DNA from: Candidatus Latescibacterota bacterium | GTDB lineage: Bacteria > Latescibacterota > UBA2968 > UBA8231 | Direction: 5' to 3' | NCBI GenBank assembly: GCA_965248355.1 | Contig: OZ252098.1 | Location: 1,854,423-1,918,422 of the forward strand | DNA length: 64,000 nt | Shown here: positions 1,334-33,859 of the stretch, piece by piece | Layout: every line of letters begins with the position of its first letter | How positions within the stretch are numbered: position 1 is the stretch's first letter | The notes under the pieces: generated by a model | The model's database searches: none | What the model saw: only the letters and a program-made list of their open reading frames with translations | What the model was told of the DNA's origin: nothing | Program-made: the position numbers and the translations under genes

Positions 1334-1794
1334 CTGGGACCCCTCTCCGGGTTTGGGCGTAAGTGCTTACACCCAAAGATACATTCGTGCCCGGACGTGG
1401 GGTCCCACCTTTCTTGAAAATCTGCGTAAAGTGGAAGCTACACCCATGGAAATGGCCACCTCTCGATACGCCCCACCCGAGAGTCCCATCAGGCCATCGG
1501 GATCGCTGGCCTCCTGTTGGTATACCCAAGTGTTACCTACCACCAGAGGTAAGTAATCCGAGGGCTGGTACGTCGTCTGGGAATGAGCTCTGGACGCTGA
1601 GATAGCTGACAGATGCTACGGAGAGGTACCAGCCTCCAAAGATCCGAGGCTTGCTTTTGTGCGACCCCAAGACGTGTCGGAGATCCTCGTATCCCAGTCA
1701 GGTTCAAACAGCAGTTTCCACCGCGGGAGTTTTGTAGAGTTGGCAGACCCCCAAGGAGAGAATGGAGGTCGTGTCAAAAGGTGTGTAAACGAGA

Positions 1795-2028
1795 TCAGGC
1801 GGCCCTCTGGATCCCTTCCCTGGTAGAGGCGTCCTCTTGGATCGGTTTTCCGTCCTGGTATCTCCGACCGGCGTAGACCGCCGGCAGGAGCTCGGGCGCG
1901 TTGAGCTTGCGGAATCGTGTCTCGGCCACCCTCAGCACGCGCCAGATGAGGGCGGTGGCCCCCTGGACCCGCTTGTAGCGTTTGCCCGCGTTGGTCCGCA
2001 GACGGACCGAGGCAAAAGGGCTCTCCAC
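1795..2028 (-). pseudogene. 77-aa C-terminal fragment of a transposase (IS256/Mutator-like tail)
   Basis: MESPFASVRLRTNAGKRYKRVQGATALIWRVLRVAETRFRKLNAPELLPAVYAGRRYQDG resembles the NxIESxN...KRR.RVV..F.N..A..LI..VL.E....W C-terminus of IS256-type transposases. Too short to be functional and lies between two other IS copies. Confidence 0.35.
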
Positions 2029-2149
2029 CGGGAGACGTTGGACTGAATCTTAAGGTCTCGCTCAGAACCGTAGCACAGCAAATAATGAGTAGCGACCACG
2101 ACTATCCGGAGCTAGGCCAAGCAAGAACCGGGGAGGTGTCGGAGGCCGG

Positions 2150-3565: not shown

Positions 3566-4397
3566 CAATGCCCGGAGGCCTGTGCGACATGAAAATGGAA
3601 GGCAGTCTTCCTGCCTTCGACGTTTCGGAAACGAAGGTGGCCATGCCAGAAGAGCAGACTAGCACCGCTGGCCATGCACGCTCGTAACTATCTCCAATGA
3701 GCCCGATACCAAGCACGACACCTAGCCAACTGCTAATCAGTGCTAAGCCGAATTGACTCTCGGAATCCACTAGGCTCAGACCTGCCGCCGTTCCGAACCC
3801 AGTGCCGATGGATCCACCGACCAGGAACCCGATGCCTCCGCAGACACCCTGTCCGTTGCAACCGCTTGACAGAAGGCTTCCGCCGAGAAAACCACCAGCC
3901 GCGCCGGAAATGGATCCGGCGACGAACTTCAAAGCGATTCGTTTGGCATGCGTCAGTTCCTTTCCTTGAGTCGCTGTCGCGGCTGACGTGTCCGGCTTAG
4001 ACCCCTCGGTCCCCCCGTGAGTGATATGCATGTGACCAACTGGCTCTGAAGAGAACGTTGTCTTTAGAAGCAGCGTTCCGATGCCCGCGCCGTCACCGTG
4101 AGGGCGCCCTTGGCTCTGTCCCATTGGGGTACACATGGGTGAGAAGGTCAGTGGCAACTCCTGAGCCGAGGGCAATCCGGTCAGGTAGACGATCCCCGAG
4201 TCGAGCGCCTCCAGGACGGTCAGCTTCGCCAACTCCGCAGACGGAGTCGGGGCCCCGTCGGACAGACCGAGGTCCTTCAACATCGCACGCAGGGAGACGT
4301 CCGGCACGGTGACTTCTAGCGAAAGAATATCCGCGCCCAACCGGTCGGCAGAGCCCGCCAGGGTCAGCCCCAAGGCCAAGGGAATGATACCGAGCAT
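3563..4397 (-). CDS. hypothetical glycine-zipper-rich exported/membrane protein; 3' end may be cut by the IS256 terminus
   Basis: Start is ATG at 4397 with GGAG ~10 nt upstream. The N-terminus MLGIIPLALGLTLAGSADRL is hydrophobic, and the later GSISGAAGGFLGGSLLSSGCNGQGVCGGIGFLVGGSIGTGFGTAAGL has a glycine-zipper pattern. The segment 3560-4660 is visibly lower in GC than its flanks. The ORF has no stop before it runs into the IS256 end at about 3560. Confidence 0.3.
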
Positions 4398-4708
4398 GGT
4401 CTTCTACTCCCATCTGCCCGGCACGGGCAATAGCTCGACATGCCTGAGATCGGCGGAAACCGCACTCTGGAGTTATCCCGGTTTCGCGGACAGCTTTCCG
4501 TTTGTATTCTTTCGTGCGTGACGGATGATTCCTTGTTGACGGGCGACTGGTTGTCCAGGGCGGAGTGGGTGGGGACTTGCACCAGCACCAGCCAGTGTAT
4601 CCGTGGGGCCGAAGTATGTCAAGCGATATGTGATATGGTCATGGGTCGCCACGACTTCTGCACGGCCTCATGGAGGCGAGGAGGGCCTCAGGCGTGGTCT
4701 CCGGGCCC

Positions 4709-5918
4709 TCAGCTCTCCCCGCCTCCCTCCGAGTCTACGTCCCGCCCCCCAACCACCTCCCGCCCCCGCCACAGCTCGTAGACCGCCGGCAACACCAACA
4801 ACGCCAGCAGGGTGGCGGTCGCCAGCCCGCCGACCATGGGCGCCGCGATCCGCTTCATCACCTGCGACCCGGTGCCCGTGGCCCACATGATCGGCAGCAG
4901 GCCGCCCACCGTCGAACCCACGGTCATGAAGATCGGCCGCACGCGCCGGGAGGCGCCCTCGACAATGGCGGCGGCGAGATCTCCGGGGCTTTCGAGAGGG
5001 CCCTCCTGGCGGCGGGCCTCCAGCGCCTGGTCGAGGTAGGTGAGCATGACCACGCCCAACTCGGCGCTGACTCCGGCAAGGGCGATGAACCCCACGCCCA
5101 CGGCGACGCTCATGTTGTAGTCGAGCAGGTAGATGAGCCAGATCCCACCGACCAGGGCGAAGGGCAGGGTCAACATCACCATCAAACTTTCCACGACGCT
5201 GCGGAAGTGGAGGAAGAGGAGCAGGAAGATGATGGCGAGGGTCACCGGGACGACGAGGCTCAGCCGCTCCTTGGCCCTCTCCATGTATTCGTACTGGCCG
5301 CTCCAGACCAAGCTGTATCCCTGGGGCAGGTCGATCTCCTCGCCCACGATCTCCCTGGCGCGCTCGACATAGGTGCCCACGTCGACGTCGCGGATGTCGA
5401 TGTAGACCCAGGCGTTGAGGCGCGCGTTCTCGCTCTTGATGCCGGGGGGCCCCTTGCGGATGCGCAGGTCGGCGACCTGCCCGATGGGGATCTGCGCCCC
5501 CGTGGGCGTGGCCACCAGGACCCGCCGCAAGGCGGGCAGGTTGTCGCGCAGCTCGCGCCCGTAGCGCAGGTTGACCGGGTAGCGCTCGCGGCCCTCCACC
5601 GTGTGGGTGATGTTCATGCCGCCCATGGCCGACAGGATCACCTCCTGCACGTCGCCCACCGTGAGCCCGTAGCGCCCCGCCTCCGCGGTCGCTCTCGAAG
5701 TCGACGTAGTTGCCGCCGGCAACCCTTTCGGCGTAGACGCTGGCCGTGCCCGGGATCTCGCGCACCACCTGCTCGATCCGCCGGCCCACCTCCTGGAGCG
5801 TCTCGAGATCGCCGCCGGCGACCTTGATGCCCACGGGGGTCTTGATGCCGGTGGAGAGCATGTCGATGCGCGTCTTGATCGGCATCGTCCAGGCGTTGGT
5901 CAGGCCCGGGAAGCGGAC
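4709..5918 (-). pseudogene. CusA/CzcA-type heavy-metal-efflux RND transporter, C-terminal ~400 aa only, frameshifted
   Basis: The minus-strand sequence ...VRFPGLTNAWTMPIKTRIDMLSTGIKTPVGIKVAGGDLETLQEVGRRIE... then ...GRYGLTVGDVQEVILSAMGGMNITHTVEGRERYPVNLRYGRELRDNLPALRRVLV...PFALVGGIWLIYLLDYNMSVAVGVGFIALAGVSAELGVVMLTYLDQA...MTVGSTVGGLLPIMWATGTGSQVMKRIAAPMVGGLATATLLALLVLPAVYELW matches the CusA family closely. The reading frame breaks near 5700 (FESDR|GGGALR versus the expected FESDREAAGRYGL). No N-terminal ~600 aa exists upstream, where the sequence runs into an ISKra4 remnant. Confidence 0.75.
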
Positions 5919-6309
5919 ACCTGTCAAGGGACACCCAGATTCGCGCAGTTGGGGGACACGTGAATTCGCGCACCCCGGATGATCGGGGTCGGTGCTACCG
6001 GATCGGTCTTCCTCCCTCCTGAGGTGAGGCGTGGCACCGGGCCCGGGACCTGCAACGCACCCCGGGCGGAGTCCCCGGTCCCAACAAGGAACTCTCGTCG
6101 AACGAGGGGTGTGAGCGATGGTCCTGGCCTCCTTCCGTCCCCGTGTCATCGGTCCTGGGCCAGTTGCTGCTCCATGTCCCGGAGGCGGAAGCTGCGGCCG
6201 TCGATCTGCAGGACATGGTAGTAGTGGAGCAGACGATCCAGGATGCCGTGGCCGGGACCTCGTCGCCGGCCAACATCTCCGGCCATTCGCGGATGCTCTG
6301 TTGGAGGTG

Positions 6310-7190: not shown

Positions 7191-7904
7191 TCAGACCTCG
7201 ATGGCGAAGAGGCGATTCACCGCCGGCAGGGTGATGCGCTCGGAGTAGTGGAAGACCTCGGCCGCCTGGGGGGCCTCACCGGTGCGGGTGGGTACTTCGA
7301 CCACGAAGTCGGCGAACCCCGGGACGTTGAAGGCGACGAAGGCCAGCCGCAGGGCGTCGACGCTGCGCTCGGGGCGGCGGGACAGGTCCGGCAGCACCAC
7401 CGGACCGGTGTCGACCTGGTAGATCCCCGGGCCGCGGCGGGTGTTCATCGTCTTCACCGGCGCCTCGATGACGGCCCGCAGGCCGGTGCCGGGATCGGCG
7501 ATCTCGGTCTGCGACACCAGCGGCTCGTGGGCATAGGTCGCCTCCAGGATCTCCTCCTGGGTCGTCAGCTCCCGCGCCGGGCCCTCCACCAGCCGGTAGC
7601 TCTGTCCGTCCCACCACCCGTCGGCCTCGCGGACCTCGCGGTAGCCGTCGTGGCGGACGGACTTGCGCCGGAAGACGATCGCCCACCGCGGTCCGAAGAC
7701 CGGCAGGAAATCGTAGTTGTCCTGAAGGAACAGGTCCCTCTCGGCGAAGGTGTCCTCGCTCTTGCAGGACCCGCACTGGACGTAGTCCTCATGCGTTCCC
7801 GAACGCTCGTCGATCCAGCGCGTGCGCGACTCCACCCAGAAGCGGACCTCGTTGGTGGGCGCCCGGCCGATGACGAAGGAGCGTCCGTAGTCGAGGGGGG
7901 TCAT
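7191..7904 (-). CDS. hypothetical protein (237 aa), translationally coupled to the upstream DUF362-domain gene
   Basis: Protein-like, acidic composition, unlike the Arg/Pro-rich antisense ORFs. Its ATG overlaps the stop of the upstream gene as ATGA at 7901-7904. No family recognised. Confidence 0.55.
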   Translation of the reverse strand: MTPLDYGRSFVIGRAPTNEVRFWVESRTRWIDERSGTHEDYVQCGSCKSEDTFAERDLFLQDNYDFLPVFGPRWAIVFRRKSVRHDGYREVREADGWWDGQSYRLVEGPARELTTQEEILEATYAHEPLVSQTEIADPGTGLRAVIEAPVKTMNTRRGPGIYQVDTGPVVLPDLSRRPERSVDALRLAFVAFNVPGFADFVVEVPTRTGEAPQAAEVFHYSERITLPAVNRLFAIEV

Positions 7905-10858
7905 GATCGGGACTCCTTTTCCGGCGCCTCGGCCGGCGTGGCCGGCACCGCCCAGAGGGTGACCGTGACCTCGTCTGAAAGCCGGCGCCAGCGCTCGTCG
8001 GCGGTGCGCACGACCGCGGTCCAGCCGTTGTCGGCGGACGGGCTCTGGCGGATCTCGTAGTAGCCGCTCCCCTCCGTCTCCAGGGCGAAGCGCCAGCCCC
8101 CTTCCTCGGGCACGGGTCCGTGGACCTCGGTGGTCACCTGCTCGGCCTGGCGGCCGTGCAACCAGCTGTACCTCAGGCCCTCGGCATTGTCGTAGTGGAT
8201 CTCGTAGATCCCCCCGCCGTAGCTCGAGCGCCAGGTGAAGAGGCGCACGCCGCGGTCCCTCTCGCGCAGGGGATCCTCGGCCGGCGGCGGGATCGGCCCC
8301 CGCTCGAGCAGGTCCGACAGCGCCTGCAGGGCCTGCCTCTCCAGACGCCGGGCCGCCCGCAGGCGGACCCTGGCCCTCGCAGGATCGATCCTCGTCCCGT
8401 CCGCTTCTCCCGCGAACACGCCGAGGTCGCGCTGCAGGCCGCCGGAATCCTCGTCGAGCTCGTCCGCCACCCTCTGGTAGGCCGTCCCCGCGGCGTGGAG
8501 CAGGTCGCGCCGGGGCCCGGGACTCTCGCGGCCGGCGGCGGCAAGGAGGAACCGCGCCGCCCTTCTTCGAGCCTCGATCAGGGGCGGCAGGTCCCCCGAG
8601 CCCATCCCCGCGAGCCGGTCCCGCTCGCCGTTAGCTGCGAGCCACTCCTCCGTCCACGGGAGCCGCTCCCAGTCCCGGACCCAGGAATCCCAGGCGTGGA
8701 GCCCGGCCGGCCGCCGCTGCACGCCCCATGGCTCCGGCTGGTCTTCGGTCCAGATGGTCAGACCCATCTCCAGGGCCAGGGCGGCGACACTGTCCACGAG
8801 GGCGCCTTCGGCCAGGGGTTCTCCGGCCTTCTCCACCACCAGGATGGGACAGTTGCGCCAGAGGCGGTCGGGATAGCGGGCCCACCACTGGTCCCCGACG
8901 AGGCGCCATCCCTCTTCCTCCGGCCCAAGCTCGTAGAGCTCGATGCCCTCCGCCGTCTCGCGGTAGCCGGCGGCCACCTTCCACCGCTGGTCATCATCCC
9001 CGATCACCACCGGCAGGCCCCACGACAGCCAGCCCTTGATCTCCTTGAGGCTCTCCCGCGCCTTGAAGCCGCTGGAGAGGCTGTAACCCAGGCCGAGCCA
9101 TTCGAGCATGCGCGGGGGCTCGGGACCGTACCTCGGCCACCCGACCGGGGAGTACGGACTCGAGTACGCGCCGGACCAGAACGGGGGCCCGCTCAGGGTC
9201 GCCAGGGTGAGGCTGTCGAGATCGGCCCGCCGCAGCCCGGCGGCGTCGGCCGCGGCTCCGAGCAGGCTCTCGGTGGTGGGCCGCGGAGGTTGCCGGAGGA
9301 GGACCGAGTCCGGGGCGGACAGGGCCGCCTCGAGGGGCTCGCCCCTCCCGAGATCCCCCACCCTCTCCTCGGAGAACCAGCCGTCGTAGATGTCCTCGGA
9401 GCGAACCCTCGCCGCCGGCGACAGGGGATCGGCGCCGGTGACGCTGTAACGGACGCCCGGATAGCGGTTGCCGGCGAAGCGCGGATCGTCGATCGGCTCG
9501 CAGACGTTGAAGGAGAAGTCGAACCGCCCCCGCCTCTGGGAGGCGCGCACGAGGAGCCTGTGCTCCCCGGCCTTCAGGTGTCCCCGCAGCTGCTCCTGCC
9601 CCAGCATGTGGCGGCGGCGGCCGTCGAACTCGTAGAGCGGCTCTCCGTCGATCCAGACGGTGAGGCCCTCGTCCGAGCCGAGCCAGAAGCGCACGGAGTC
9701 CGGACGCGCCATGGTGAAGGTCGTGTACGCATACACGGCGCAGTGGATGGGATCGTCGAAGTGGGAGTCCAGGTCGATCTTGTCGTGGCCGAACCAGGTC
9801 ACCTCGGACCAGCCGCCGCGGCCGGGCTCCGGGCGCAGCCCGGCCACCTCTTCGGGGGTGAACCGGTGATCGCGTTCCAGCGGTCCGAGAAGGGTCCAGC
9901 GGCGGGGGCCCATGCCGTAGTTGGCCTGCTCCGTCCACTCGCCGCCGCCGTAGTCGGCGCCCGCCTTGACGTAGCGCATGGCCAGGGACTCCACGTCGCC
10001 GCCGAGGACGCGGATGTTCTCGTACACGCCCGGTCCCCGGCCCCGCTGCCAGGCCAGGTCGGCGAACTCGAAGTCGTCCGGATTGAAGCCCATGAGCCGG
10101 GCCACCACGAGGTCGGTGGCCACCGGGTCGGCGCCGGCGACGATCGTGTTGGCCCGCCGGGGAGTGCCGCCGAAGGCGCCGCCCTCGCTGCCGGCGATCA
10201 TGTCGACCACGTTCAGGTCGACCTCGGTCAGGCCCCACAGGTCGACCCAGCACTCGTCCTGCACCCGCGGGGCGTGGGGGATGCCGGCGGGCCGGCGCTC
10301 GGTGCCGCCGCCCTTGTTCCAGCCGTAGATGTGCCCGGGAAGGATGCCGAGGTGGTTCTTCATCGCCGCCGTTAACTTGGCGCCGTGGGTCTTGGCCACG
10401 GGACAGTTGATCCAGGCGTCGGCCTCGAGGATGGTGGCGGCGATGTCGTAGTCCGGGTCGGCGAGGCCTCCGCCGCGGGGCGCCACGCGGACGGGACGGT
10501 CGAAGTTCAGGTCGACGCACTCGATGTCGACGCCCCGCCGGCGCAGCTCGCTCACCGTGGCCCGGTGTCCGGCGACCTCGAAGCCGTCCACCAGCCAGCC
10601 CGACGGCACCTCCTGGTCGGTGCTGTCCGCCAGGGTCGGGCTCATCCAGCCGCCGGCGCCCTCGGCGATGGAGATGCGCGCGCCCGGGGCCGCCTCGTGG
10701 ACCAGGATCGCCACGGCCCGCACCACGCGGGCGTCGGTGACGATGCCGGAGCCGGAGGGGTCGGGTATGGTGACGTTCGGCTTGATCGCCACCCACCGCG
10801 CCGTATCGGGCACGAAGGCCCCCATGCCCCCCACGAGGTCGACGGCGCGGCGCACCAT
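7901..10858 (-). CDS. large multi-domain protein with N-terminal DUF362, central PA14/jelly-roll-like domain and unknown C-terminal domains; probably secreted and N-terminally longer (candidate start 11011)
   Basis: DUF362 hallmarks are VAIKPNVT...TDARVVRAVAILVHEAAPGARISIAEGAGG...NCPVAKTHGAKLTAAMKNHLGILPG...LNVVDMIAGSEGGAFGGTPRRANTIVAGADPVATDLVVARLMGFNP. The jelly-roll-like block is ...VRFWLGSDEGLTVWIDGEPLYEFDGRRRH...HRLLVRASQRRGRFDFSFNV. In frame directly upstream lies NRIAHILLVLLFSSWAAAQSFRVGVVP, a signal-peptide-like segment, with no ATG/GTG/TTG before it (see findings). Confidence 0.7.
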   Translation of the reverse strand: MVRRAVDLVGGMGAFVPDTARWVAIKPNVTIPDPSGSGIVTDARVVRAVAILVHEAAPGARISIAEGAGGWMSPTLADSTDQEVPSGWLVDGFEVAGHRATVSELRRRGVDIECVDLNFDRPVRVAPRGGGLADPDYDIAATILEADAWINCPVAKTHGAKLTAAMKNHLGILPGHIYGWNKGGGTERRPAGIPHAPRVQDECWVDLWGLTEVDLNVVDMIAGSEGGAFGGTPRRANTIVAGADPVATDLVVARLMGFNPDDFEFADLAWQRGRGPGVYENIRVLGGDVESLAMRYVKAGADYGGGEWTEQANYGMGPRRWTLLGPLERDHRFTPEEVAGLRPEPGRGGWSEVTWFGHDKIDLDSHFDDPIHCAVYAYTTFTMARPDSVRFWLGSDEGLTVWIDGEPLYEFDGRRRHMLGQEQLRGHLKAGEHRLLVRASQRRGRFDFSFNVCEPIDDPRFAGNRYPGVRYSVTGADPLSPAARVRSEDIYDGWFSEERVGDLGRGEPLEAALSAPDSVLLRQPPRPTTESLLGAAADAAGLRRADLDSLTLATLSGPPFWSGAYSSPYSPVGWPRYGPEPPRMLEWLGLGYSLSSGFKARESLKEIKGWLSWGLPVVIGDDDQRWKVAAGYRETAEGIELYELGPEEEGWRLVGDQWWARYPDRLWRNCPILVVEKAGEPLAEGALVDSVAALALEMGLTIWTEDQPEPWGVQRRPAGLHAWDSWVRDWERLPWTEEWLAANGERDRLAGMGSGDLPPLIEARRRAARFLLAAAGRESPGPRRDLLHAAGTAYQRVADELDEDSGGLQRDLGVFAGEADGTRIDPARARVRLRAARRLERQALQALSDLLERGPIPPPAEDPLRERDRGVRLFTWRSSYGGGIYEIHYDNAEGLRYSWLHGRQAEQVTTEVHGPVPEEGGWRFALETEGSGYYEIRQSPSADNGWTAVVRTADERWRRLSDEVTVTLWAVPATPAEAPEKESRS

Positions 10859-11141
10859 CTGCAGGACCTGGCCGGCGGTGAGGGAATCGGTGCGCGCCGC
10901 GGGTGCGGCCAGGGATGCGTCGTCGGAGGGGACGACGCCGACGCGGAAGGACTGGGCCGCGGCCCACGAGGAGAAGAGCAGGACCAGCAGGATGTGGGCG
11001 ATTCGGTTCAGGACGGCTCTCTGCGGTCAAAAGGTCAGGGAAAAGGAATAGCGCCCCCCTGTGAGACATTGTCAAACGGTCGCCGGCTCACGCCGCGGCC
11101 CCGTTGACCCTCCTCCGGCCGGCGCCCAATATACCCGCCTC

Positions 11142-14100
11142 ATGGAACGACATCTCGAACGCGGCGACTTCCGCCTCCTCCTCGGATGCGCCGCCCTCAC
11201 CGTCCTCGGCCTGGTGGTGGGGGCCCGCTTCTTCTACGACGCCTTCCCCGAGGCGACCATCGACTTCGCCCTCACCCGCGGCGAAGCCCGGGAGGAGGCG
11301 GCCTCCTTCCTCGAGGGCCGGGGCCTCGACCTCGACGGCTACCGGCACGCCGTCCTGTTCCGCTACGACGACGGCGCCAAGACCTTTCTCGAGCGCGAGC
11401 TCGGCCTCGAGGGGGCCAGCGCCGCCATCGACGACCCGGTGCGCCTGTGGCGCTGGAGCAACCGCTGGTTCCGGGAGCGGCAGAAGGAGGAGTTCCGGGT
11501 CGAGCACACGACCACCGGGGACCTCGTCGGCTTCCGGCACCTGATCGAGGAGGAGGCCGCCGGCGACCGCCTGTCCCAGCCCGAGGCGCGGGGCTTGGCG
11601 CAGCGGTTCCTGTCGCAGGCGATGGGCCTCGACCCGGACCGGCTGGAGTTCGTCGAGGCCGAGACCACGGAGCGGCCCAACCGCGTCGACCACGCCTTCA
11701 CCTGGAAGCTGACCGGCTTCGAGGTCTCCGGGGCCAGCTACCGCTACCGCGTCGGCGTCCAGGGCGGCGAGGTCGGTGGCTTCACCGAGTTCCTGAAGGT
11801 GCCGGAAGCCTGGGAGCGGGACTACAAGGAGCTGCGTTCCCGCAACGAGACCACCGGCCTGGTGGCCTTCCTGTTCCTCTTCGCCACCTGGCTGGCCCTG
11901 CTCGTCCGTCTCGTCCTGAGCATCCGCAACCAGGACGTGCGGTGGCGCTTCGTCCTCGTCCTCGGGGGCATCGCCTTCGTCCTCACCTTCCTGGCCAACC
12001 TCAACGCCCTGCCGGTGGCGGTGTACAACTTCGACACCACCGGCACCTTCGGCAGCTTCCTGGCCGGGGGCGTGCTGGAAGCCGCCGCCGGCGCCCTGGC
12101 CATCGCCCTGGTCATCGCCTTCGTGGTGGCCGGCGGCGAGCCGGAGTACCGCCGCTGGTACGGGGACCACATCCGCCAGTCGAAGCAGTTCCTGCTCGAG
12201 GGGATCCGCACCCGGCGCTTCCTTACGGGCAGCGTCATCGGGCTGACGATGACGGCCCTCTTCATCGCCTACCAGAGCGTGTTCTACGTCGTGGCCGGAC
12301 GGTTCGGGGCCTGGAGCCCGGCCGACATCCCCTACCGGGAGATGGTCAACACCTACGTCCCCTGGGTCGTGGTGCTCCTCATCGGGTTCCTGCCCGCCGT
12401 CTCCGAGGAGTTCACCTCCCGCGCCTTCTCCATCCCCTTCCTGCACCGGATCCTCCGGCACCGCTGGGCGGCGGTGCTCATCTCCGCCGCCATCTGGGGG
12501 TTCGCCCACGCCGGCTATCCGCAGCAGCCCTTCTGGATCCGCGGCCTGGAGGTGGGGCTGGCAGGAGTCGCCGTCGGCTACGTCTTCGTGCGCTGGGGGC
12601 TGCTGCCGGTCCTGGTCTGGCACTACACGATCGACGCCTTCTACACGGCCCTGATCCTGCTGCGCTCCAGCGACCCCTACTTCGTGCTCTCCGCCGCCCT
12701 GTCGGTGGGCCTCCTGCTGCTGCCCCTCGGGGCGGCGGTGGTCCTCTACCTGCGGCGGGGGTCCTTCGTCGACCCCGGGCCGCTGCTGAACCAGGAGGAC
12801 AGCCCGCCCCTCGAAGAGGTGCGCCCGGACCCGCCCGCAGAGCCGGGACCCGGCGACGGGACCCCTCCCGAGGCCTCCGCCTACCGGCCGCTGAGCCGTG
12901 CCCGGCTCGCCGTCGCCGCCGCGGCCGTCCTTGCGGCGTTGTCGGTCTTCGCCCTCCAGAAGCCGGAACTGGCCCCGAAGGTCGACTACGGCCTGACCTC
13001 CGGGGCGGCCCTCGCCGAGGGCCGCCGGCACCTGTCCGCCCTGGGCGTCGACGTCGACTCCTGGCGCACGGTGGTGACCCAGGAGACCCCCTGGAGCTGG
13101 ACCGCCGTCGAGTACCGCGACGAGCGTGCCGGCCCGGCCATGGCCTCGGAGCCCTACAAGGGCGCTCTGGCGCCCTCTCTGTGGCGGGTCCGCTTCTTCC
13201 AGCCCGGGGAGAAGGAGGAGTGGTCGGTCCTGCTGCGCCCGGAGGACGGCGAGGTCTACGAGGTCCGCCACCAACTTGCCGAGGAGGCGCCGGGCGACAG
13301 TCTGTCCGAGGAGGAGGCGATGGCCGTGGCCCTGGACCACATGCGCGCCTTCGGCCTGGATCCGTCCTCCTTCACGCTCAAGGAGGCCTCCGCCGAGGAC
13401 CTGCCCGGGCGCCGCGACCACTGGTTCGAGTGGGAGGCGAAGGAGGGCGACCGGCGCAACCTCGACGAGGCCAGGTTCCGCTGCCGGGTGCACGTGGCCG
13501 GAGACCAGGCCGCCGGCCTGCACCGCTACATCAAGCTGCCCGAGGACTGGCTGCGGGAGCGCCGCCAGGGCTCCTGGTGGCGCACGACCTTGGAGTGGAC
13601 ACCCGCCGCCGTGGGCATGGCCGCGGCCGTGCACCTGCTGGTGCTCCTCGTGCAGCACATCCGCTCGGGAGCCCTGGCCTGGCGGCGGCCGTTCCGGCTC
13701 GGGCTCTTCGCAGCCGTGGTCTTCGCCCTCGCCCAGGTGAACGGGCTGCCCTCCTTCTACGGAGCCTACGCCACCGAGGTCCCCCTCACCCTCTACATGG
13801 TCATCCGCCTCGTGGGCTTTCTGTTCTCCGTGGTCACCGTCGGGCTTCTCGTGGCCGTGGCCGCCGGACTCTGCGGCTCCCTCTACCCGGCGGCCGAGGA
13901 CCGCATGGGCCGGACCGGCCTGCGCCTGCAACTGCGCGACGCCGTGCCCCTCGCCGCCCTCGCCGTCGCCGGGAGACTGGCCCTGGACCGCTTCTCGGGG
14001 ATCCTCGCCGCCGCCCTCCCCGCGGGGGCTTCCCCGCCCTCCCCCGAGATCCCGGAGGTCGGCTCCTGGGCGCCCGCCCTGGGCGGTCTCCTGGGCGCCG

Positions 14101-14555
14101 TGATGAGCGCGTTGCTCCTGCCCCTGGCCGCCGCCGTCCTCGTGTACTACGTCGTCCGCGTCCTCCGCCGCCCGGCGGTGGTGATCCTCGTCCTGCTCGC
14201 ATGCGGGGGGGCCCTGGCCGGCGCCGAGGCCCACCGGCCGGCCGAGTTCCTCTACGACCTGGCCTGGTTCGCCCTGACCGCCGCGCTGCTGGCCGCCGCC
14301 GTGTACTGGTTCTTCCGCGACAACGTCGCCGCTTACGCCCTCACCGGCTTCCTCTTCGCCGCCGCGGAGGGCGGCCTCGGCCTGCTGGATCAGTCGGCCT
14401 ATGCCGCCCAGGGCTGGGTGATGCTCGTCGGCGGCGCGGCTTTCCTGGCCGGCCTGTGGCTGCTGTCCGACGGGAGCGCCCCTCGTGGCGAGCTGGCCGG
14501 GGACCATCCCGCCCCTTCGGCCGAAGACCCGCCGGACCCGCCGCAAGGACCCTGA
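11142..14555 (+). CDS. giant CPBP-family (CAAX/Abi-type) intramembrane metalloprotease with internal duplication (1138 aa from ATG 11142; GTG 11061 possible)
   Basis: Catalytic motifs sit in the first half: VSEEFTSRAFSIPFL (EExxxR), AIWGFAHAGY (FxxxH), HYTIDAFY (HxxxD/N). There are two hydrophobic multi-TM blocks, each preceded by a similar soluble domain (see findings). The stop TGA at 14553-14555 overlaps the ATG of the next gene. Confidence 0.8.
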   Translation: MERHLERGDFRLLLGCAALTVLGLVVGARFFYDAFPEATIDFALTRGEAREEAASFLEGRGLDLDGYRHAVLFRYDDGAKTFLERELGLEGASAAIDDPVRLWRWSNRWFRERQKEEFRVEHTTTGDLVGFRHLIEEEAAGDRLSQPEARGLAQRFLSQAMGLDPDRLEFVEAETTERPNRVDHAFTWKLTGFEVSGASYRYRVGVQGGEVGGFTEFLKVPEAWERDYKELRSRNETTGLVAFLFLFATWLALLVRLVLSIRNQDVRWRFVLVLGGIAFVLTFLANLNALPVAVYNFDTTGTFGSFLAGGVLEAAAGALAIALVIAFVVAGGEPEYRRWYGDHIRQSKQFLLEGIRTRRFLTGSVIGLTMTALFIAYQSVFYVVAGRFGAWSPADIPYREMVNTYVPWVVVLLIGFLPAVSEEFTSRAFSIPFLHRILRHRWAAVLISAAIWGFAHAGYPQQPFWIRGLEVGLAGVAVGYVFVRWGLLPVLVWHYTIDAFYTALILLRSSDPYFVLSAALSVGLLLLPLGAAVVLYLRRGSFVDPGPLLNQEDSPPLEEVRPDPPAEPGPGDGTPPEASAYRPLSRARLAVAAAAVLAALSVFALQKPELAPKVDYGLTSGAALAEGRRHLSALGVDVDSWRTVVTQETPWSWTAVEYRDERAGPAMASEPYKGALAPSLWRVRFFQPGEKEEWSVLLRPEDGEVYEVRHQLAEEAPGDSLSEEEAMAVALDHMRAFGLDPSSFTLKEASAEDLPGRRDHWFEWEAKEGDRRNLDEARFRCRVHVAGDQAAGLHRYIKLPEDWLRERRQGSWWRTTLEWTPAAVGMAAAVHLLVLLVQHIRSGALAWRRPFRLGLFAAVVFALAQVNGLPSFYGAYATEVPLTLYMVIRLVGFLFSVVTVGLLVAVAAGLCGSLYPAAEDRMGRTGLRLQLRDAVPLAALAVAGRLALDRFSGILAAALPAGASPPSPEIPEVGSWAPALGGLLGAVMSALLLPLAAAVLVYYVVRVLRRPAVVILVLLACGGALAGAEAHRPAEFLYDLAWFALTAALLAAAVYWFFRDNVAAYALTGFLFAAAEGGLGLLDQSAYAAQGWVMLVGGAAFLAGLWLLSDGSAPRGELAGDHPAPSAEDPPDPPQGP

Positions 14556-16006
14556 TGCACCTGCTCGTCACCGGGGCCTCGGGCCGCGTCGGCGCCTGTG
14601 TGGTGCGCGGCCTGCGGGCCCGGGGCCACCGCGTGCGCGCCTTCGACCGCCGGGCCCCCGCCGACGGCGCCGGCGGGGAGAGCCTGCAGGGGGACCTGGG
14701 GGACTTCGATCAGGTCCGCCGCGCCGTGGACGGCGTCGATGCCGTAATCCACCTCGGGGGCAATGCCGGCGAGAAGCCCTGGCCGGAGATCGGCAACAAC
14801 AACTACATCGGCTGCTACCACGTCTTCGAGGCGGCGCGGGAGCTGGGCGTGCGGCGCGTGGCCTTCGCCAGCCGCGCCGGCCTGCTGCGTCTCTACCCGG
14901 ACGGCGTGCAGCGCCGGGTGGACATGCTCCCCCGTCCGGTGGGCCTCTACGACAACAGCAAGCTCTTCGGCGAGATGCTGGCGTCCATGTACGCCTCGCG
15001 CTTCGGCATGGAGTGCGTCTGCGTCCGCATCGGCAACTTCAGCCCCGACCGCGACGAGCCCGGGCACCCGCACGAGCTGAGCCACGGCGACTGCGTCCAC
15101 CTCTTCGAGCAGGCCGTCACCCATCCGGGGGTGGGCTTCGAGATCGTCTTCGGCGTCTCGGGGAGCGACTGGCCGCTCTACGACCTGGACCACGGCCGGC
15201 AGGCCATCGGCTACGATCCGCAGGACGTCTCCCGCGTGCCGGAGGACAAGCGCGTCTTCCGCGGCGCGGACGGGCCGGCGGAGCCCCTGTCGGAGGCGCC
15301 GCCCCGGCGGGTGCTGATCACCGGCGCCGCGGGGAGCGTGGGACGGGTCCTGGCCCGCGGCCTGCGCCGGCGCTACGAGATCCGCGGCATGGACCGGGCG
15401 GAGATGCCGGAGCTCTCCGACACCGTGGTGGCTCCCCTCGGCGACTTCGAGGCCTGCCTGCGGGCCACGCGGGACGTGGACGCCGTCGTCCACCTGGGAG
15501 GCACCCCCAGCGGGGGGTCGCCGTGGGAGGAGGTGTGGTCCTCCAACTTCGTCGGCACCTGGAACATCATGGAGGCGGTGAGGCGCAACCGGGTGCCCCG
15601 CGTCGCCTACGCCAGCCGCGCCGGTATCCTCTCCCCCTACCCGCCGGGTCTGCGGCGCACCGTCGACCTCTACCCGAGGCCGGAGAGCTACTACACGATC
15701 AGCAAGATCTTCGGAGAGGGCCTGGGCCACACCTGGGCCTGGCGCCACGGCACCCGCTTCGTCGGCGTGCGCATCGGCAACTTCAGCCGCGAGCGCGACC
15801 AGCCGGCGCACCCCCACCAACTGGGGCACGAGGACGCGGTGCGCGTCTTCGAGGCGGCCATCGCCCACACGGGGGCGACGTACGAGATCGTCTTCGGGGT
15901 ATCGGACAGCGACTGGTCCCTCTACGACGTCGACCACGGCCGGCGGGCGATCGGCTACGAGCCCGCCCAGCGCAGCGTCGTCCCGGAGTCGGAGCGGACG
16001 GGCTAA
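14555..16006 (+). CDS. tandem double NAD-dependent epimerase/dehydratase (SDR-fold) fusion protein, 483 aa
   Basis: There are two Rossmann starts, MHLLVTGASGRVGACVVRGLRARGHRV and RVLITGAAGSVGRVLARGLRRRYEIRG, each followed by DAVIHLGG/DAVVHLGG and YxxSK-like motifs (YDNSKLFGE / YTISKIFGE). The two halves are ~45% identical to each other. The ATG overlaps the CPBP stop (TGATG). Confidence 0.8.
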   Translation: MHLLVTGASGRVGACVVRGLRARGHRVRAFDRRAPADGAGGESLQGDLGDFDQVRRAVDGVDAVIHLGGNAGEKPWPEIGNNNYIGCYHVFEAARELGVRRVAFASRAGLLRLYPDGVQRRVDMLPRPVGLYDNSKLFGEMLASMYASRFGMECVCVRIGNFSPDRDEPGHPHELSHGDCVHLFEQAVTHPGVGFEIVFGVSGSDWPLYDLDHGRQAIGYDPQDVSRVPEDKRVFRGADGPAEPLSEAPPRRVLITGAAGSVGRVLARGLRRRYEIRGMDRAEMPELSDTVVAPLGDFEACLRATRDVDAVVHLGGTPSGGSPWEEVWSSNFVGTWNIMEAVRRNRVPRVAYASRAGILSPYPPGLRRTVDLYPRPESYYTISKIFGEGLGHTWAWRHGTRFVGVRIGNFSRERDQPAHPHQLGHEDAVRVFEAAIAHTGATYEIVFGVSDSDWSLYDVDHGRRAIGYEPAQRSVVPESERTG

Positions 16007-16019
16007 TCCTCGACGGGGG

Positions 16020-17804
16020 TCAGTCCGAGTACTCCACCGGCCCGACGCTCTCCTCGATCCGCCGCCGCAGTCCCGCCAGCTCTTCCTGCACGCGGGAGGC
16101 GACCTCGGCCACGGGCACTTCTTCTCCCCGGCCCCGGCCGCCGCGGATCTTCACCTCCAGCGTCCCCTTCTTCAGACCGCGGTCACCGACGGTGACCCGC
16201 ACCGGGCAGCCCAGGAGGTCGGCGTCGTTGAACTTGACGCCGGGGTTCTCGGCTCGGTCGTCGTAGAGGACCTCGACGCCGGCCGATCTCAACTCCTCGT
16301 AGAGGGTCTCGGCAGCCGACCGGACCGGTCCCTCGGCCCTGGCCAGGGAGACGAGATGCACCTGGTACGGGGCCACGGTCACCGGCAGGGAGAGGCCGTC
16401 GTCGTCGTGGTGCTCCTCGGCGACGCAGGCCAGCAGCCGGCCCACGCCGATGCCGTAGGAGCCCATGATGACGGGACGCTCCCGGCCCTGCTCGTCGAGG
16501 AAGGAGGCGCCCAGGGCCTCGCTGTAGCGCGTGCCGAGCTGGAAGATGTTGCCCATCTCGACGCCGCGGACGATGCGCAGGGCGGCGCCGCACGCGCCGC
16601 AGGCGTGTCCCGCCCCGGCCAGGGCGATGTCGTCGACCACGGCGGCCTTCCAGTCGCGGCCGTGGTTGACGTTGCGCACGTGGTACCCGGCCTCGTTGGC
16701 GCCGGACACGAGGTTCGGCGACGAGGCCACGGAGTCGTCGGCCACCACCAGGGCGCTCTCGTCCAGCCCCATGGGCGAGGCGTACCCAGGCACCGCGCCG
16801 GCCGCGGCGATCTCCTCGTCGCGGGCCGGCCTCAGGGACAGGGCGCCGGCGGCGTTGGCCAGCTTGATCTCGTTGACCTCGAGGTCCCCGCGGATGACGG
16901 CGAGGACGAGCCGTTCCGCGGACTCGCCGCCGGCCTCGGCGGCCTTGAAGCGGCCCACCAGGAAGACCGCCTTCGCCGTGCGGCTCCCGGGGACGTCGAG
17001 GAAGGCGGCCAGCTCGGCGATGGTCGCCGCCCCCGGGGTGGCCACCCGCTCCAGGGCCGCCGGTTCCTCCTCGGCGGCCGCCGCCTTGGCGAAGCCGGCG
17101 ACCTCGGTGTTGGCCGCGTACCCGCAGGCGTCGCACAGGGCCAGGGTGTTCTCCCCCACCTCGTTGAGATACATGAACTCGTGGGCCGCGGAGCCGCCCA
17201 TCATGCCCACGTCGGAGCGCACCGCCCGCACCGGCAGGCCGCAGCGCCGGAAGATGTTGAAGTAGGCCTGGTAGTGGGCCCGGTACTGGGCCTCCAGCCC
17301 CTCCGGCGCGGCGTCGAGGGAGTAGGAGTCCTTCATGGTGAACTCGCGCACCCGCAGCAGGCCGGAGGTGGGCCGCGCCTCGTCGCGCCACTTGGTCTGG
17401 AAGTGATAGACCATGCAGGGCAGCTGCCGGTACGAGCGGATCTCCCGGCTGGCCAGGTCGGCGACGATCTCCTCGTGGGTGGTGGCCAGCACCATGTCGC
17501 GGCCGTGACGGTCCTGGAAGCGGGTCAGCGACTCGTCGTACTCCTCGTAGCGGCCCGAGGTCTTCCACACGTCCGCGGCGTGGACCACGGGCATCTTGAT
17601 CTCCTGGCCGCCGATGGCATCCATCTCGCGGCGGATGATCTCCTCGATCTTGCCGAGGGACCGCTGCGCCAGCGGCAGGTAGCTGAAGATGCCGCTGGCG
17701 AGCTGGCGGATGTACCCGGCCCGCAGCAACAGGATGTGGCTGGCCACCTGGGCGTCCGCCGGGGCCTCCCGCAGGGTCTGGCTGAACAGTCGGCTCATGC
17801 GCAT
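16020..17804 (-). CDS. proS: proline--tRNA ligase (bacterial type)
   Basis: MRMSRLFSQTLREAPADAQVASHILLLRAGYIRQLASGIFSYLPL...FQTKWRDEARPTSGLLRVREFTMKDSYS...GSYGIGVGRLLA is near-canonical ProS with class II aaRS motifs. Confidence 0.95.
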   Translation of the reverse strand: MRMSRLFSQTLREAPADAQVASHILLLRAGYIRQLASGIFSYLPLAQRSLGKIEEIIRREMDAIGGQEIKMPVVHAADVWKTSGRYEEYDESLTRFQDRHGRDMVLATTHEEIVADLASREIRSYRQLPCMVYHFQTKWRDEARPTSGLLRVREFTMKDSYSLDAAPEGLEAQYRAHYQAYFNIFRRCGLPVRAVRSDVGMMGGSAAHEFMYLNEVGENTLALCDACGYAANTEVAGFAKAAAAEEEPAALERVATPGAATIAELAAFLDVPGSRTAKAVFLVGRFKAAEAGGESAERLVLAVIRGDLEVNEIKLANAAGALSLRPARDEEIAAAGAVPGYASPMGLDESALVVADDSVASSPNLVSGANEAGYHVRNVNHGRDWKAAVVDDIALAGAGHACGACGAALRIVRGVEMGNIFQLGTRYSEALGASFLDEQGRERPVIMGSYGIGVGRLLACVAEEHHDDDGLSLPVTVAPYQVHLVSLARAEGPVRSAAETLYEELRSAGVEVLYDDRAENPGVKFNDADLLGCPVRVTVGDRGLKKGTLEVKIRGGRGRGEEVPVAEVASRVQEELAGLRRRIEESVGPVEYSD

Positions 17805-17820
17805 CGGTATCCGCTCTCCT

Positions 17821-18513
17821 TCATCTCTTGGCCGCTTCGTGTTTCACCATGGAGCCCATGGCCCGGTACATCGCCCACAGGGACAACCACACCCAGGCGC
17901 CGGCGATGGGGTACGCCAGCCACGGCAGGCCGAGGTACGCCGCCAGGATGCCGGCGTCGGTGCGCCCGGCGAACCACCACAGGTCGGTGCGGAAGTCGTG
18001 CAGGCTGTAGAGACAGAGCATCACCCCCAGCCACACGGCCCCGGCCGATCCCGACCGGGCCGAGTACACGGCCGTGCAGATCAGGACCAGGCCGCCGCCG
18101 ATCCCGAGGTAGAAGTCGAGCCCCCCCGCGGGCGTGAAGGCCAGGGTCATGCCCAGGGTCACGGCGCCCACGAGAAGCAGGCCCAGGCGCTGCAGCTGGG
18201 GCAGCACGCCGGACCAGATCAGGGCGGCGCCCACGAGGGCGGAGCCCAGGTACCCGGCCGACGCGATGACGACCGGCCAGCCGCCCCGGGAGAGGGTGTA
18301 GCCGTGCTCCCCCCAGGCGGTGCGCATCTCGAGAACCTCGCCGCCCGTGACCACCGCGGCGGCGGCGTGGCAGACCTCGTGGACCATGACCACGAAGACG
18401 CGGAAGGGCTTGATCCAGGCGGTATCCCACAGCAGCAGGGCGGCGGCGGCGCAGGCCAGGTGAAAGCGGAAACGCCACAGGATCCGGGCCCCGCGGCGGA
18501 CCCCGTTCCCCAC
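17821..18513 (-). CDS. M50-like membrane metallopeptidase (HExxH in a TM segment), ~230 aa; GTG start assumed
   Basis: Contains VFVVMVHEVCHAAAAVVTGG (HExxH) and several TM segments. The longer annotated ORF start overlaps thrS, so I chose GTG 18513 (GGAA 7-9 nt upstream), 5 nt downstream of the thrS stop. Confidence 0.55.
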   Translation of the reverse strand: MGNGVRRGARILWRFRFHLACAAAALLLWDTAWIKPFRVFVVMVHEVCHAAAAVVTGGEVLEMRTAWGEHGYTLSRGGWPVVIASAGYLGSALVGAALIWSGVLPQLQRLGLLLVGAVTLGMTLAFTPAGGLDFYLGIGGGLVLICTAVYSARSGSAGAVWLGVMLCLYSLHDFRTDLWWFAGRTDAGILAAYLGLPWLAYPIAGAWVWLSLWAMYRAMGSMVKHEAAKR

Positions 18514-18518
18514 CGGGG

Positions 18519-20474
18519 CTATTCCGGCGCCCGCGAGGCGATGCGGCCGGCGATCAGGGCCACCGCCTCGTCCACCGCCATGGGATCGAGGGTCTGCCCG
18601 CTGCGCAGGCGGAGGGCCGCTTGGCCGTCCTCCATCTCGCGGTCGCCGAGGACCAGCATGAAGGGCACCTTCTGCTTCTGCGCCGCGCGGATCCGGTAGT
18701 TCAGGCTCTGATCCTCGTGCAGCTCGGCGCGCACCCCGACCGCGGTCAGGGCGCCGCACATGCGGGCCCCGTACTCGGCGTGGCGCTCGGCGATGGGCAG
18801 CACCGCCGCCTGCACCGGCGCCAGCCACGGCGGGAAGGCGCCGGCGTAGTGCTCGATCAGGAAGCCGATCGTGCGCTCGTGAGTTCCCAACGTGGCGCGG
18901 TGGATGCAGATCGGCGTCTCCTCCCTGCCCTCGGCGCTGGTGTAGACCAGGCCGAAGCGGCCCGGCACCGCGAAGTCGACCTGGTTGGTGGCGATGGAGA
19001 ACTCGCGGCCGATGGCGCTCCAGACCTCGACGTCGATCTTGGGCCCGTAGAAGGCCGCCTCCCCGGCGACCTCGACGTGGTTGATGCCGCCGTTGGCCAG
19101 GGCGCGGCGCACCCTCTCCTCGGTCTCGAGCCAGAGCTCCGGCTCGCCCACGTATTTCCGGCCCAGCTCCTCCGGGTCGTGGGTGCTGAAACGCATCACG
19201 TACTTGTCGATGCCGAAAAGCTCGAAGTAGCCGAGGTACATGCGGCAGACGGCGAGGAACTCCTCCTCGAACTGGTCGAGGGTGCAGTAGATGTGGGCGT
19301 CGTTCATCTGCATGGAGCGCACCCGCATCAGCCCGAAAAGCTCCCCGGACTGCTCGTAGCGGTAGCAGGTGCCGTACTCGGCCAGGCGCAGGGGCAGGTC
19401 GCGGTAGCTGCGCGGAAGCGAGGCGAAGACCTTGTGGTGGTGGGGGCAGTTCATCGGCTTGAGGTAGTACTTCACCCCCTCCAGCTCCATGGGAGGGAAC
19501 ATCGACTCGGCGTAGTAGGGCAGGTGGCCGCTACGCACGAACATCGCGTCCTTGCAGATGTGGGGGGTGCGCACCTGCAGGTACCCGGCCTCGCGCTCCG
19601 TCTCCTTCGCCAGCCGTTCCAGCTCCTCGATCAGGATCGTCCCCTTCGGCTGCCACAGGGGCAGGCCCGGGCCCACCTCGTCGTCGAAGAAGAACAGCTC
19701 CAGCTCCCGCCCGAGGCGGCGGTGGTCCCGCTTCTTCGCCTCCTCCAGCATCTTCAGGTGGCGGTCGAGGGCCTCGCGGCTGGCGAAGGCGGTGCCGTAG
19801 ATGCGCTGCAGCATCTTGTTGCCCTCGTCGCCGCGCCAGTAGGCGCCGGCGACGCTGAGCAGCTTGTAGTGGCGGACCTGTCCCGTGCTCAGCACGTGGG
19901 GCCCGCGGCAGAGGTCGACGAAGTCGCCGTCGCGGTAGAAGGTGAGGGACTCGTCCGCCTCGAGGTCGTCGAGGATCTCCAGCTTGTAGGGCTCGTCCCG
20001 CAGGCGGCGGCGGGCCTCGTCGCGGCTCACCTCCTCGCGCTCGAAGCGGTGGTTCTGGCGGACCACCCGCTTCATCTCCTTCTCGATCCGCCCCAGGTCC
20101 TCGGCGCTGAAGGGCTCGGGCACGTCGAAGTCGTAGTAGAAGCCGTCGTCGATGGCCGGGCCGATGGCCAGCCGGGCCCCGGGGAAGAGCCGGCGGACGG
20201 CCTGGGCCAGCACGTGGGACAGGCTGTGACGGTAGACCCGGCCCGCCTCCTCGGCCTCCCAGGGGACGAGCTGGACCTCGGCGGAGGCCTCCAGCTCGGT
20301 ATGGAAGTCGATCCACTCGTCGTCCCGGCGGGCGGCCACGAACTCCCGCAGCAGCTTCCGGTCGTGCTCGAGGAGGATCTCCTTGAGGCGGCCTCCCCCC
20401 TCGTGCTCGAGCACCTCCTGTTCGCGGATCCGGATCCTCACACCTCGCTCCTGTCCGTCAAGAGAAAAGCCCAC
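18519..20474 (-). CDS. thrS: threonine--tRNA ligase
   Basis: Has the TGS-like N-terminus, HRDLG-like RDHRRLGRELELF, the class II core ...YLKPMNCPHH...RVRSMQMNDAHIY...FYGPKIDVEV, and a C-terminal anticodon-binding domain. Confidence 0.95.
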   Translation of the reverse strand: MGFSLDGQERGVRIRIREQEVLEHEGGGRLKEILLEHDRKLLREFVAARRDDEWIDFHTELEASAEVQLVPWEAEEAGRVYRHSLSHVLAQAVRRLFPGARLAIGPAIDDGFYYDFDVPEPFSAEDLGRIEKEMKRVVRQNHRFEREEVSRDEARRRLRDEPYKLEILDDLEADESLTFYRDGDFVDLCRGPHVLSTGQVRHYKLLSVAGAYWRGDEGNKMLQRIYGTAFASREALDRHLKMLEEAKKRDHRRLGRELELFFFDDEVGPGLPLWQPKGTILIEELERLAKETEREAGYLQVRTPHICKDAMFVRSGHLPYYAESMFPPMELEGVKYYLKPMNCPHHHKVFASLPRSYRDLPLRLAEYGTCYRYEQSGELFGLMRVRSMQMNDAHIYCTLDQFEEEFLAVCRMYLGYFELFGIDKYVMRFSTHDPEELGRKYVGEPELWLETEERVRRALANGGINHVEVAGEAAFYGPKIDVEVWSAIGREFSIATNQVDFAVPGRFGLVYTSAEGREETPICIHRATLGTHERTIGFLIEHYAGAFPPWLAPVQAAVLPIAERHAEYGARMCGALTAVGVRAELHEDQSLNYRIRAAQKQKVPFMLVLGDREMEDGQAALRLRSGQTLDPMAVDEAVALIAGRIASRAPE

Positions 20475-31919: not shown

Positions 31920-32171
31920 GCGGGTGGCGGCTTGGGAACCGGGAAGCCCGTCCTCCTCATCGACGCCAGAGGCGAGTTCCAGGACTACGACAGGACTATA
32001 CTCGACGAGATCATCCGGTCTTCGGGACCTTCAGAGCGCGGTTGACAGGTACGCCTTGGCGGCCACATTCGAGGAGATCGCCGAGAACTGCGTCAGCCTC
32101 AACATCCCCCGCTGCGGGGACACTTACAGCCGGCACCGGAGGTTGAAGGGGTATCTGAAGGAGCCTGATTT

Positions 32172-33777: not shown

Positions 33778-33859
33778 TGGCCCACGACGCCCGCCTGGGA
33801 TGCGGCAAGGAACGACAGGCCTCCCCGAAGGATACCACCTCTACAATAGAGAGGATCGT

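Follow-up and report, generated by a model that had tools for sequence, protein, structure and literature searches.

A family of tandem CPBP membrane proteins joining a putative intramembrane protease to a degenerate copy of its own module

A 64,000-nucleotide stretch of a Candidatus Latescibacterota genome (GenBank assembly GCA_965248355.1, contig OZ252098.1, forward-strand positions 1,854,423–1,918,422; hereafter the window) encodes an 1137-residue membrane protein, gene A, that is built from two homologous modules ending in a core of the CPBP family. The catalytic residues of this family are intact in the first module and lost from the second. The protein is probably a built-in heterodimer in which a live CPBP glutamic intramembrane protease is fused to a pseudoprotease scaffold, and this two-module form is the norm of a large, phylum-spanning family. 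A first-pass annotation, made from the letters of the sequence and its open reading frames (ORFs), had proposed an internal duplication with a catalytically dead second half and a coupling of gene A to the downstream gene B; most of the proposed architecture stands, and less of the proposed function.

CPBP enzymes belong to the glutamic intramembrane proteases, and their catalytic motifs are EExxxR and HxxxN; the prokaryotic ones are abundant and mostly without known function (PMC11980579). The few CPBP proteins that have been studied divide into true proteases and non-catalytic scaffolds. Known CPBP members are single modules of about 200–350 residues.

Alignment of the two halves with each other supports the duplication. 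BLASTP of residues 1–570 against residues 571–1137 gives E=9e-25 with 28–31% identity over ∼280–370 residues, spanning the first transmembrane (TM) helix, the soluble domain and the three helices that follow. The self-alignment that the first-pass annotation had suggested, carried out with hhalign on family profiles from 37 non-redundant relatives, matches residues 14–511 to residues 590–1086 over 473 collinear columns (probability 100%, E=2.7e-45). With profiles from 126 diverse relatives (28–60% identity), the core at residues 395–545 aligns collinearly with residues 965–1115 over 127 columns (probability 94.4%, E=9e-8), and the larger region at residues 340–545 aligns with residues 915–1115 (probability 96.4%, E=1.3e-9). 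Scores for these cognate pairs are 46–62, compared with 10–25 for controls consisting of non-cognate TM blocks and reversed sequences, which align over short stretches with E-values of 8.5e-4 to 0.44. Since the diverse-profile core alignments exceed both kinds of control, it is concluded on sequence grounds that the duplication took in the entire module, CPBP core included. The query's half 1 resembles its counterparts in distant relatives more closely than it does the second half of the same protein, and therefore the duplication is older than the spread of the family.

The AlphaFold2 (AF2) model of the full-length protein, based on a 40-sequence alignment, has a mean predicted local distance difference test score (pLDDT) of 87.1 and a predicted TM-score (pTM) of 0.85; a model of the second half alone has values of 87.6 and 0.84, respectively. 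Each half consists of one TM helix, a soluble α/β domain and nine further helices, and every helix of one half has its counterpart in the other (Table 1). This agreement, together with the homology of residues 607–800 to residues 37–221, bears out the claim that the layout of a soluble domain followed by a membrane bundle is repeated in the second half. Low confidence is confined to residues 558–578 of the linker and to the C-terminal tail, and the linker as a whole (residues 540–585) is the least conserved part of the protein. The near-equality of pTM for the full-length protein and for a single half implies that the two halves are packed in a fixed arrangement in the model. Clusters of Arg and Lys residues are present at positions 262–269, 337–359, 436–441 and 538–539. 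With ten helices per module, application of the positive-inside rule to these clusters would put both soluble domains on the periplasmic side and the linker, N terminus and C terminus on the cytoplasmic side, and positive residues preceding the first TM helix of module 1 likewise suggest that this helix runs from inside to outside.

Module 1 carries an apparently intact active site. Pfam identifies the Rce1-like family PF02517 at residues 407–499 (42.4 bits against a gathering score of 22.4), and all three CPBP motifs that the first-pass annotation had located in the first half are found: EEFTSR at residues 422–427, WGFAH with His456, and HYTID at residues 494–498. The position usually written as Phe in the FxxxH motif is Trp452 (Trp452-x3-His456), and Glu422, Glu423 and Arg427 lie within the AF2 helix at residues 407–437. 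Glu422, Glu423, Arg427 and His456 are kept in all 126 diverse relatives and His494 in 125 of them, while position 498 is Asp in 98 and Asn in 28, so that an Asp or Asn is present in 126 of 126. An EExxxR motif occurs in half 1 of 235 of the 237 full-length relatives. Module 1 is thus presumably a working glutamic intramembrane endopeptidase. NCBIfam contains no dedicated model for the gene A protein; the best match there, with 34.8 bits where 435 are required, is to the CPBP end of a model for an ABC-permease/CPBP fusion. PADLOC gives no defence-system match for the protein, and a family sequence-profile search against the PDB gives no match at E≤1.

Module 2 shows the opposite pattern. Residues 571–1137 have no Pfam match even at E≤10, and NCBIfam and PADLOC are also without a match to this half. 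In the profile alignment, Glu422, Glu423, Arg427, His456, His494 and Asp498 correspond to Leu993, Pro994, Ala997, Glu1029, Gly1069 and Ala1073, and the module 2 columns at these positions are variable across the family and mostly hydrophobic or small. An EExxxR motif beyond residue 900 is present in only two of 237 full-length relatives, as expected from the claim that the second half lacks the catalytic motifs. Relatives average 25.6% identity with the query in half 2 versus 42.7% in half 1, with half 2 lower in 125 of 125 comparisons, and within the CPBP-like core the corresponding values are 23% and 51%. Almost no residue is invariant between positions 976 and 1110; a conserved Arg1059 aligns with the conserved Arg484 of half 1. 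Half 2 is nevertheless predicted with pLDDT ∼88–95. Half 2 thus evolves faster yet is retained whole in nearly every full-length relative examined. As judged from the alignments, module 2 is a degenerate CPBP copy whose catalytic death is ancestral, in keeping with the pseudo-protease half that had been proposed.

The soluble domain of module 1 matches Pfam DUF4901 (PF16244, 'YcdB, YcdC repeated domain') at residues 104–195 with 31.5 bits against a cut-off of 27. The module 2 domain has no Pfam match and is homologous to residues 37–221 of module 1 by BLASTP and by profiles; core positions conserved alike in it include Trp681/Arg684 and Arg757/Asp759, which correspond to Trp103/Trp105/Arg108 and Arg181/Asp183 of module 1, as well as Gly787 and Pro800-Glu801. 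In the AF2 model each soluble domain is composed of two helix-plus-sheet units, as in the tandem C-terminal PepSY domains of YpeB (PDB entry 5BOI). This entry is the only Foldseek match with a probability of 1.00, a value reached by the module 1 domain and also by the module 2 domain (E=0.047, TM-score 0.43). The resemblance is one of fold, with a sequence identity of 10–18% and TM-scores of 0.41–0.43. YpeB is a spore protein and the partner of the lytic enzyme SleB. A literature search, with most subscription journals outside its coverage, returned nothing on DUF4901 and no relevant link between CPBP and PepSY.

The two-module form had been regarded as an oddity; this impression is not sustained, and the protein is no one-off fusion. 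A word-indexed search returns more than 120 full-length relatives of 1113–1146 residues with 47–100% identity, the named ones among them being called 'CPBP family intramembrane metalloprotease', 'type II CAAX endopeptidase family protein' and 'lysostaphin resistance A-like'. A scan with one genome per species identifies at least 362 encoding loci. The 80 that were fetched for comparison all match the query over approximately residues 1–1100, and they derive from Latescibacterota, metagenome-assembled genomes labelled Gemmatimonadetes, Acidobacteriota (Bryobacterales, Solibacteraceae and Terriglobia), Zixibacteria, KSB1, TA06 and Ignavibacteria; further members are present in WOR-3 and Cloacimonadota. 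An exhaustive HMMER search with half 1 yields 1005 cluster representatives (50% identity) at E<1e-30, and the best 150 of these are nearly all 1080–1230 residues long with two matches each. The search for single-module relatives covered the same best 150 of 1005; two candidates of 572 and 573 residues (P0180 and P0194) were rejected as fragments because they end at contig ends. Misassembly or a chimeric ORF was likewise rejected, as the identical architecture recurs in hundreds of independent assemblies, closed chromosomes among them. An identical or near-identical protein is found on contigs of 2.3–5.6 Mb, and among species representatives the nearest shares 89% identity. On one 2.8-Mb contig (L001, 6001–9411) the otherwise identical protein is one codon shorter (1136 versus 1137 residues), a one-codon indel between very close strains. 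The literature search, of the same coverage as above, found nothing on tandem CPBP proteins. The architecture is real, ancient and undescribed, and databases carry its members under generic names. These ∼1100-residue proteins deserve a family model of their own, since nothing of this architecture can be seen from the generic label 'CPBP family intramembrane metalloprotease'.

Comparison with known systems places the protein between several of them. Like other CPBP/Rce1-like proteins (PF02517; Rce1, the MrtX myxosortase and MroQ), module 1 scores above the family threshold and carries EExxxR, the motif 2 His and HxxxD/N in TM helices; gene A differs in its length, in the extra TM anchor, in the periplasmic tandem PepSY-like domain and in the complete dead second module. 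Module 2 resembles SpdC/LyrA/Abx1 in being a CPBP-derived bundle without catalytic residues that plausibly acts in scaffolding or docking (10.1101/2020.05.21.109470; PMC5854430; PMC3578759). Each of those, however, is a protein in its own right whose partner is a hydrolase or a histidine kinase, whereas the gene A copy is fused in cis to its intact paralogue and has its own periplasmic domain. The rhomboid pseudoproteases iRhom and Derlin are similar as inactive intramembrane-protease paralogues kept for client recognition or regulation (PMC6451368), but their fold and catalytic class are unrelated and the iRhoms are separate genes that are not fused to active relatives.

In the favoured explanation, the ancestral module would have begun with a TM anchor, followed by a tandem PepSY-like domain in the periplasm and a bundle of nine helices with the CPBP core at its end. 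Its tandem duplication would have preceded the spread of the family across phyla, giving an inner-membrane CPBP (Rce1-like) protease in the form of a covalently fused heterodimer. Module 1 would have kept the Glu-Glu/Arg/His/His-Asp(Asn) set and would be the working protease. Module 2 would have lost its catalytic residues and been retained with a confidently predicted fold; this retention at full length, with a confident fold despite the lost residues, suggests a pseudoprotease partner. It could stabilize or gate module 1, or dock the substrate or its lipid anchor in the manner of SpdC, and the two PepSY pairs could make up a cap in the periplasm to which a partner, or the exposed portion of the substrate, would bind. 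It is conceivable, although on balance doubtful, that the obligate pair of live and dead CPBP modules with twin PepSY caps represents an unrecognized envelope machine, in which the dead module would, like SpdC, bind a lipid anchor or lipid-linked polymer and present a membrane-tethered substrate to the live module; by analogy with myxosortase, it might for example be a protease that sorts or releases surface proteins anchored at their C terminus in Latescibacterota, Acidobacteriota and related phyla. The occurrence of live and dead intramembrane-protease modules in one polypeptide across several phyla amounts to a natural experiment on the contribution of the dead module, and ∼1000 clusters at 50% identity with a confident AF2 model make the family a clear target for structural and genetic work.

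Several points weigh against the heterodimer. Conserved residues are by themselves no proof of proteolysis, and some bacterial CPBP homologues with catalytic residues act non-catalytically; the pseudo-dimer interface is deduced from pTM only; and the CPBP cores alone, when compared by hhalign from a low-diversity alignment (effective number of sequences ∼1.6), do not reach significance (E=0.03–0.05). The whole protein might instead be a non-proteolytic membrane scaffold or regulator in which both modules bind partner proteins or envelope lipid carriers. This has precedent in SpdC, a CPBP homologue that serves as a non-catalytic scaffold for the hydrolase SagB and whose mutants in the putative catalytic residues look wild-type (10.1101/2020.05.21.109470), and in the action of Abx1 and SpdC via histidine kinases (PMC3578759, PMC5854430), and half 2 itself shows that such a scaffold can do without catalysis. 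However, relatives down to 28% identity show essentially no variation at any of the six catalytic positions of half 1, whereas the half 2 counterparts of these positions drift freely, which argues for selection on chemistry in half 1, and a purely non-proteolytic role seems unlikely. The C-terminal helices of half 2 might alternatively be unrelated to CPBP, with the duplication limited to the first TM helix, the PepSY domain and helices 2–5 and with another bundle recruited, possibly for transport or another function. The insignificant core comparison, obtained with closely related sequences only, would fit such a replacement, as would the absence of a Pfam match, the near-absence of invariant residues in the bundle and the failure of Foldseek to match half 2 to Rce1. 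This last negative is uninformative, because a control with the genuine CPBP half also missed Rce1. The diverse profiles, on the other hand, align collinearly with probabilities of 94–96% and clearly outscore the non-cognate and reversed controls, half 2 has as many helices as half 1 and in the same order, and the conserved arginines of the two halves align, so that a replaced bundle is very improbable.

The remaining alternative involves gene B. Direct reading of the sequence confirms the TGATG stop/start overlap that had been reported: the ATG of gene B shares one base with the stop codon of gene A, with AAGGA 5 nt upstream. Gene B also proves to be, as proposed, two epimerase-type short-chain dehydrogenase/reductase (SDR) domains in tandem. 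Pfam Epimerase (PF01370) matches over two stretches (E=1.4e-42), the two halves are 50% identical (E=2e-79) and both contain GxxGxxG and YxxxK motifs (TGASGRVG/YDNSK and TGAAGSVG/YTISK). The best PDB match is uronate dehydrogenase (Udh; 3RFT, E=4e-36), and the best NCBIfam model, that for the haloarchaeal NAD-dependent glucose-6-phosphate dehydrogenase Azf (NF041293), gives 250 bits summed over two copies, below the equivalog cut-off of 400. Each half thus resembles Udh and Azf as an SDR of ∼235 residues; gene B differs in scoring below the Azf cut-off and in the fusion of its two domains, compared with a single 232-residue copy in most related genomes. By these matches it is a relative of Udh/Azf and no demonstrated orthologue. 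No TM segment or signal peptide was found in its product.

The overlap and the upstream AAGGA could indicate that the CPBP protein, the coupled SDR and, in relatives, a metallophosphoesterase form one membrane-anchored processing or modification pathway, acting for example on an envelope sugar or a lipid-linked intermediate. A Udh-like SDR lies downstream on the same strand within ∼1.6 kb in 34 of 43 informative loci of the Latescibacterota type. A metallophosphoesterase (∼390–416 residues, Pfam Metallophos), which is not in the present window, often lies between the CPBP gene and this SDR (L005 9358–10608, L008 8351–9529 and the P0013 contig); in some genomes, of other lineages, its start overlaps the CPBP stop, and CPBP proteins of the SpdC type can bind polyprenyl-linked glycans (10.1101/2020.05.21.109470). 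Against this, the other nine of the 43 loci have no SDR nearby, and neither an SDR nor a phosphoesterase is near the gene in any of ∼27–30 informative loci from Acidobacteriota, Zixibacteria, KSB1, TA06 and Ignavibacteria, where the neighbours are unrelated; clustering of ORFs from 35 non-Latescibacterota loci revealed no neighbour common across phyla, only a clade-local methyltransferase and MFS transporter. The genes for prolyl-tRNA synthetase (ProRS), an OmpA-like protein and a GFO/IDH/MocA oxidoreductase are likewise syntenic in the Latescibacterota-type clade, so that the adjacency may be inherited gene order, and the SDR lacks membrane or export signals and has cytoplasmic sugar dehydrogenases as its nearest relatives. 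A shared pathway is accordingly improbable. The proposed conservation of a CPBP–double-SDR pair holds as far as a downstream SDR in this clade is concerned and fails beyond it: the tandem form occurs in only eight of the 34 SDR-bearing loci, all in the closest clade, and the pair is absent from other phyla. The suggested envelope sugar or peptide maturation system is not upheld, given the resemblance of the SDR to cytoplasmic enzymes and the restriction of the pair to one clade. Because the pairing is absent in other phyla, the functional link is weak, and the data favour inherited, lineage-specific gene order over a core partnership. Gene B is predicted from the sequence to be co-transcribed and translationally coupled with gene A in this window, as a lineage-specific neighbour and not a core component of the fused heterodimer.

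Table 1. Features of genes A and B and paired helices of the two gene A modules. Residue numbers refer to the respective protein; basis is the evidence for each assignment.
Feature	Residues	Window position	Strand	Basis
Gene A, two homologous modules, ∼20-helix membrane protein	1137 in total	11142..14555	+	ORF, self-similarity, AF2
Module 1 TM1, N-terminal anchor, putatively in to out	7-34	11160..11243	+	AF2 helix, hydropathy peak
Module 1 tandem PepSY-like (DUF4901) domain, predicted periplasmic	37-221	11250..11804	+	Pfam, AF2, Foldseek
Module 1 helices 2-5	222-387	11805..12302	+	AF2; hhalign to residues 805-955, E=4e-23
Module 1 CPBP core, presumably active (E422, E423, R427, H456, H494, D498)	398-539	12333..12758	+	Pfam Rce1-like, conservation
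Pro/Glu-rich linker, low confidence, predicted cytoplasmic	540-585	12759..12896	+	pLDDT <50 at 558-578
Module 2 TM1'	586-604	12897..12953	+	AF2 helix; alignment to module 1 TM1
Module 2 tandem PepSY-like domain, predicted periplasmic	607-800	12960..13541	+	Homology to residues 37-221, Foldseek
Module 2 helices 2'-5'	801-958	13542..14015	+	AF2; hhalign to module 1, E=4e-23
Module 2 degenerate CPBP core, catalytic positions all lost	978-1109	14073..14468	+	hhalign to module 1 core
Junction: Shine-Dalgarno-like AAGGA 14545-14549, stop TGA 14553-14555, start ATG 14555-14557		14545..14557	+	Sequence read directly
Gene B, tandem Udh/Azf-like short SDR	483 in total	14555..16006	+	Pfam, NCBIfam, PDB match
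Gene B N domain	1-235	14555-15259	+	
Gene B C domain	250-483	15302-16003	+	
Helix pair, half 1 vs half 2	222-262 vs 812-842			AF2
Helix pair, half 1 vs half 2	268-295 vs 848-875			AF2
Helix pair, half 1 vs half 2	303-339 vs 882-914			AF2
Helix pair, half 1 vs half 2	358-387 vs 924-958			AF2
Helix pair, half 1 vs half 2	407-437 vs 978-1008			AF2
Helix pair, half 1 vs half 2	441-455 vs 1011-1029			AF2
Helix pair, half 1 vs half 2	464-485 vs 1033-1058			AF2
Helix pair, half 1 vs half 2	487-506 vs 1062-1082			AF2
Helix pair, half 1 vs half 2	512-539 vs 1085-1109			AF2

The gene A reading frame opens further upstream at a GTG at 11061; the first ATG is at 11142, and translation from there to the TGA gives 1137 residues, the earlier figure of 1138 having included the stop codon. 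G+C content around the gene is ∼72%, and the numerous overlapping ORFs in other frames are the usual shadows of high G+C. A promoter and terminator scan of 10700–16300 gave nothing usable above the shuffled expectation, and no tRNA gene or Rfam family reaches threshold anywhere in the window.

Divergently transcribed from gene A on the reverse strand is the gene for a 985-residue protein (7901–10858) with Pfam DUF362 at residues 23–253 and ∼730 further residues without a Pfam match; its position is kept in near-identical contigs. It is adjoined at 7194–7907, also on the reverse strand, by the gene for a 237-residue protein without a Pfam match and without a TM or signal sequence; in other loci from Latescibacterota (L004 3125–3829 and the P0013 contig), homologues of ∼234–237 residues are again encoded upstream of the CPBP gene. 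On the other side of the gene pair, a reverse-strand row at 16020–20474 comprises ProRS (16020–17804), an M50B-like membrane peptidase within 17821–18828 (called as 230 residues in related contigs) and threonyl-tRNA synthetase (18519–20474), and the three genes follow one another in the same way on related contigs of Latescibacterota (L001 and L004).

Farther away, the segment at ∼32000–39000 has a G+C content of 0.61–0.67, compared with 0.70–0.74 nearby, and contains genes for a Fic/DOC protein (32172–33251), an AAA_21 ATPase ('putative AbiEii toxin' in Pfam; 36191–37384, reverse strand) and a DDE_3 transposase (37751–38977); its gene content suggests a mobile or defence island. The first 6000 nucleotides of the window (1–6000) also have a G+C content, 0.62–0.66, below that of the bulk of the window.

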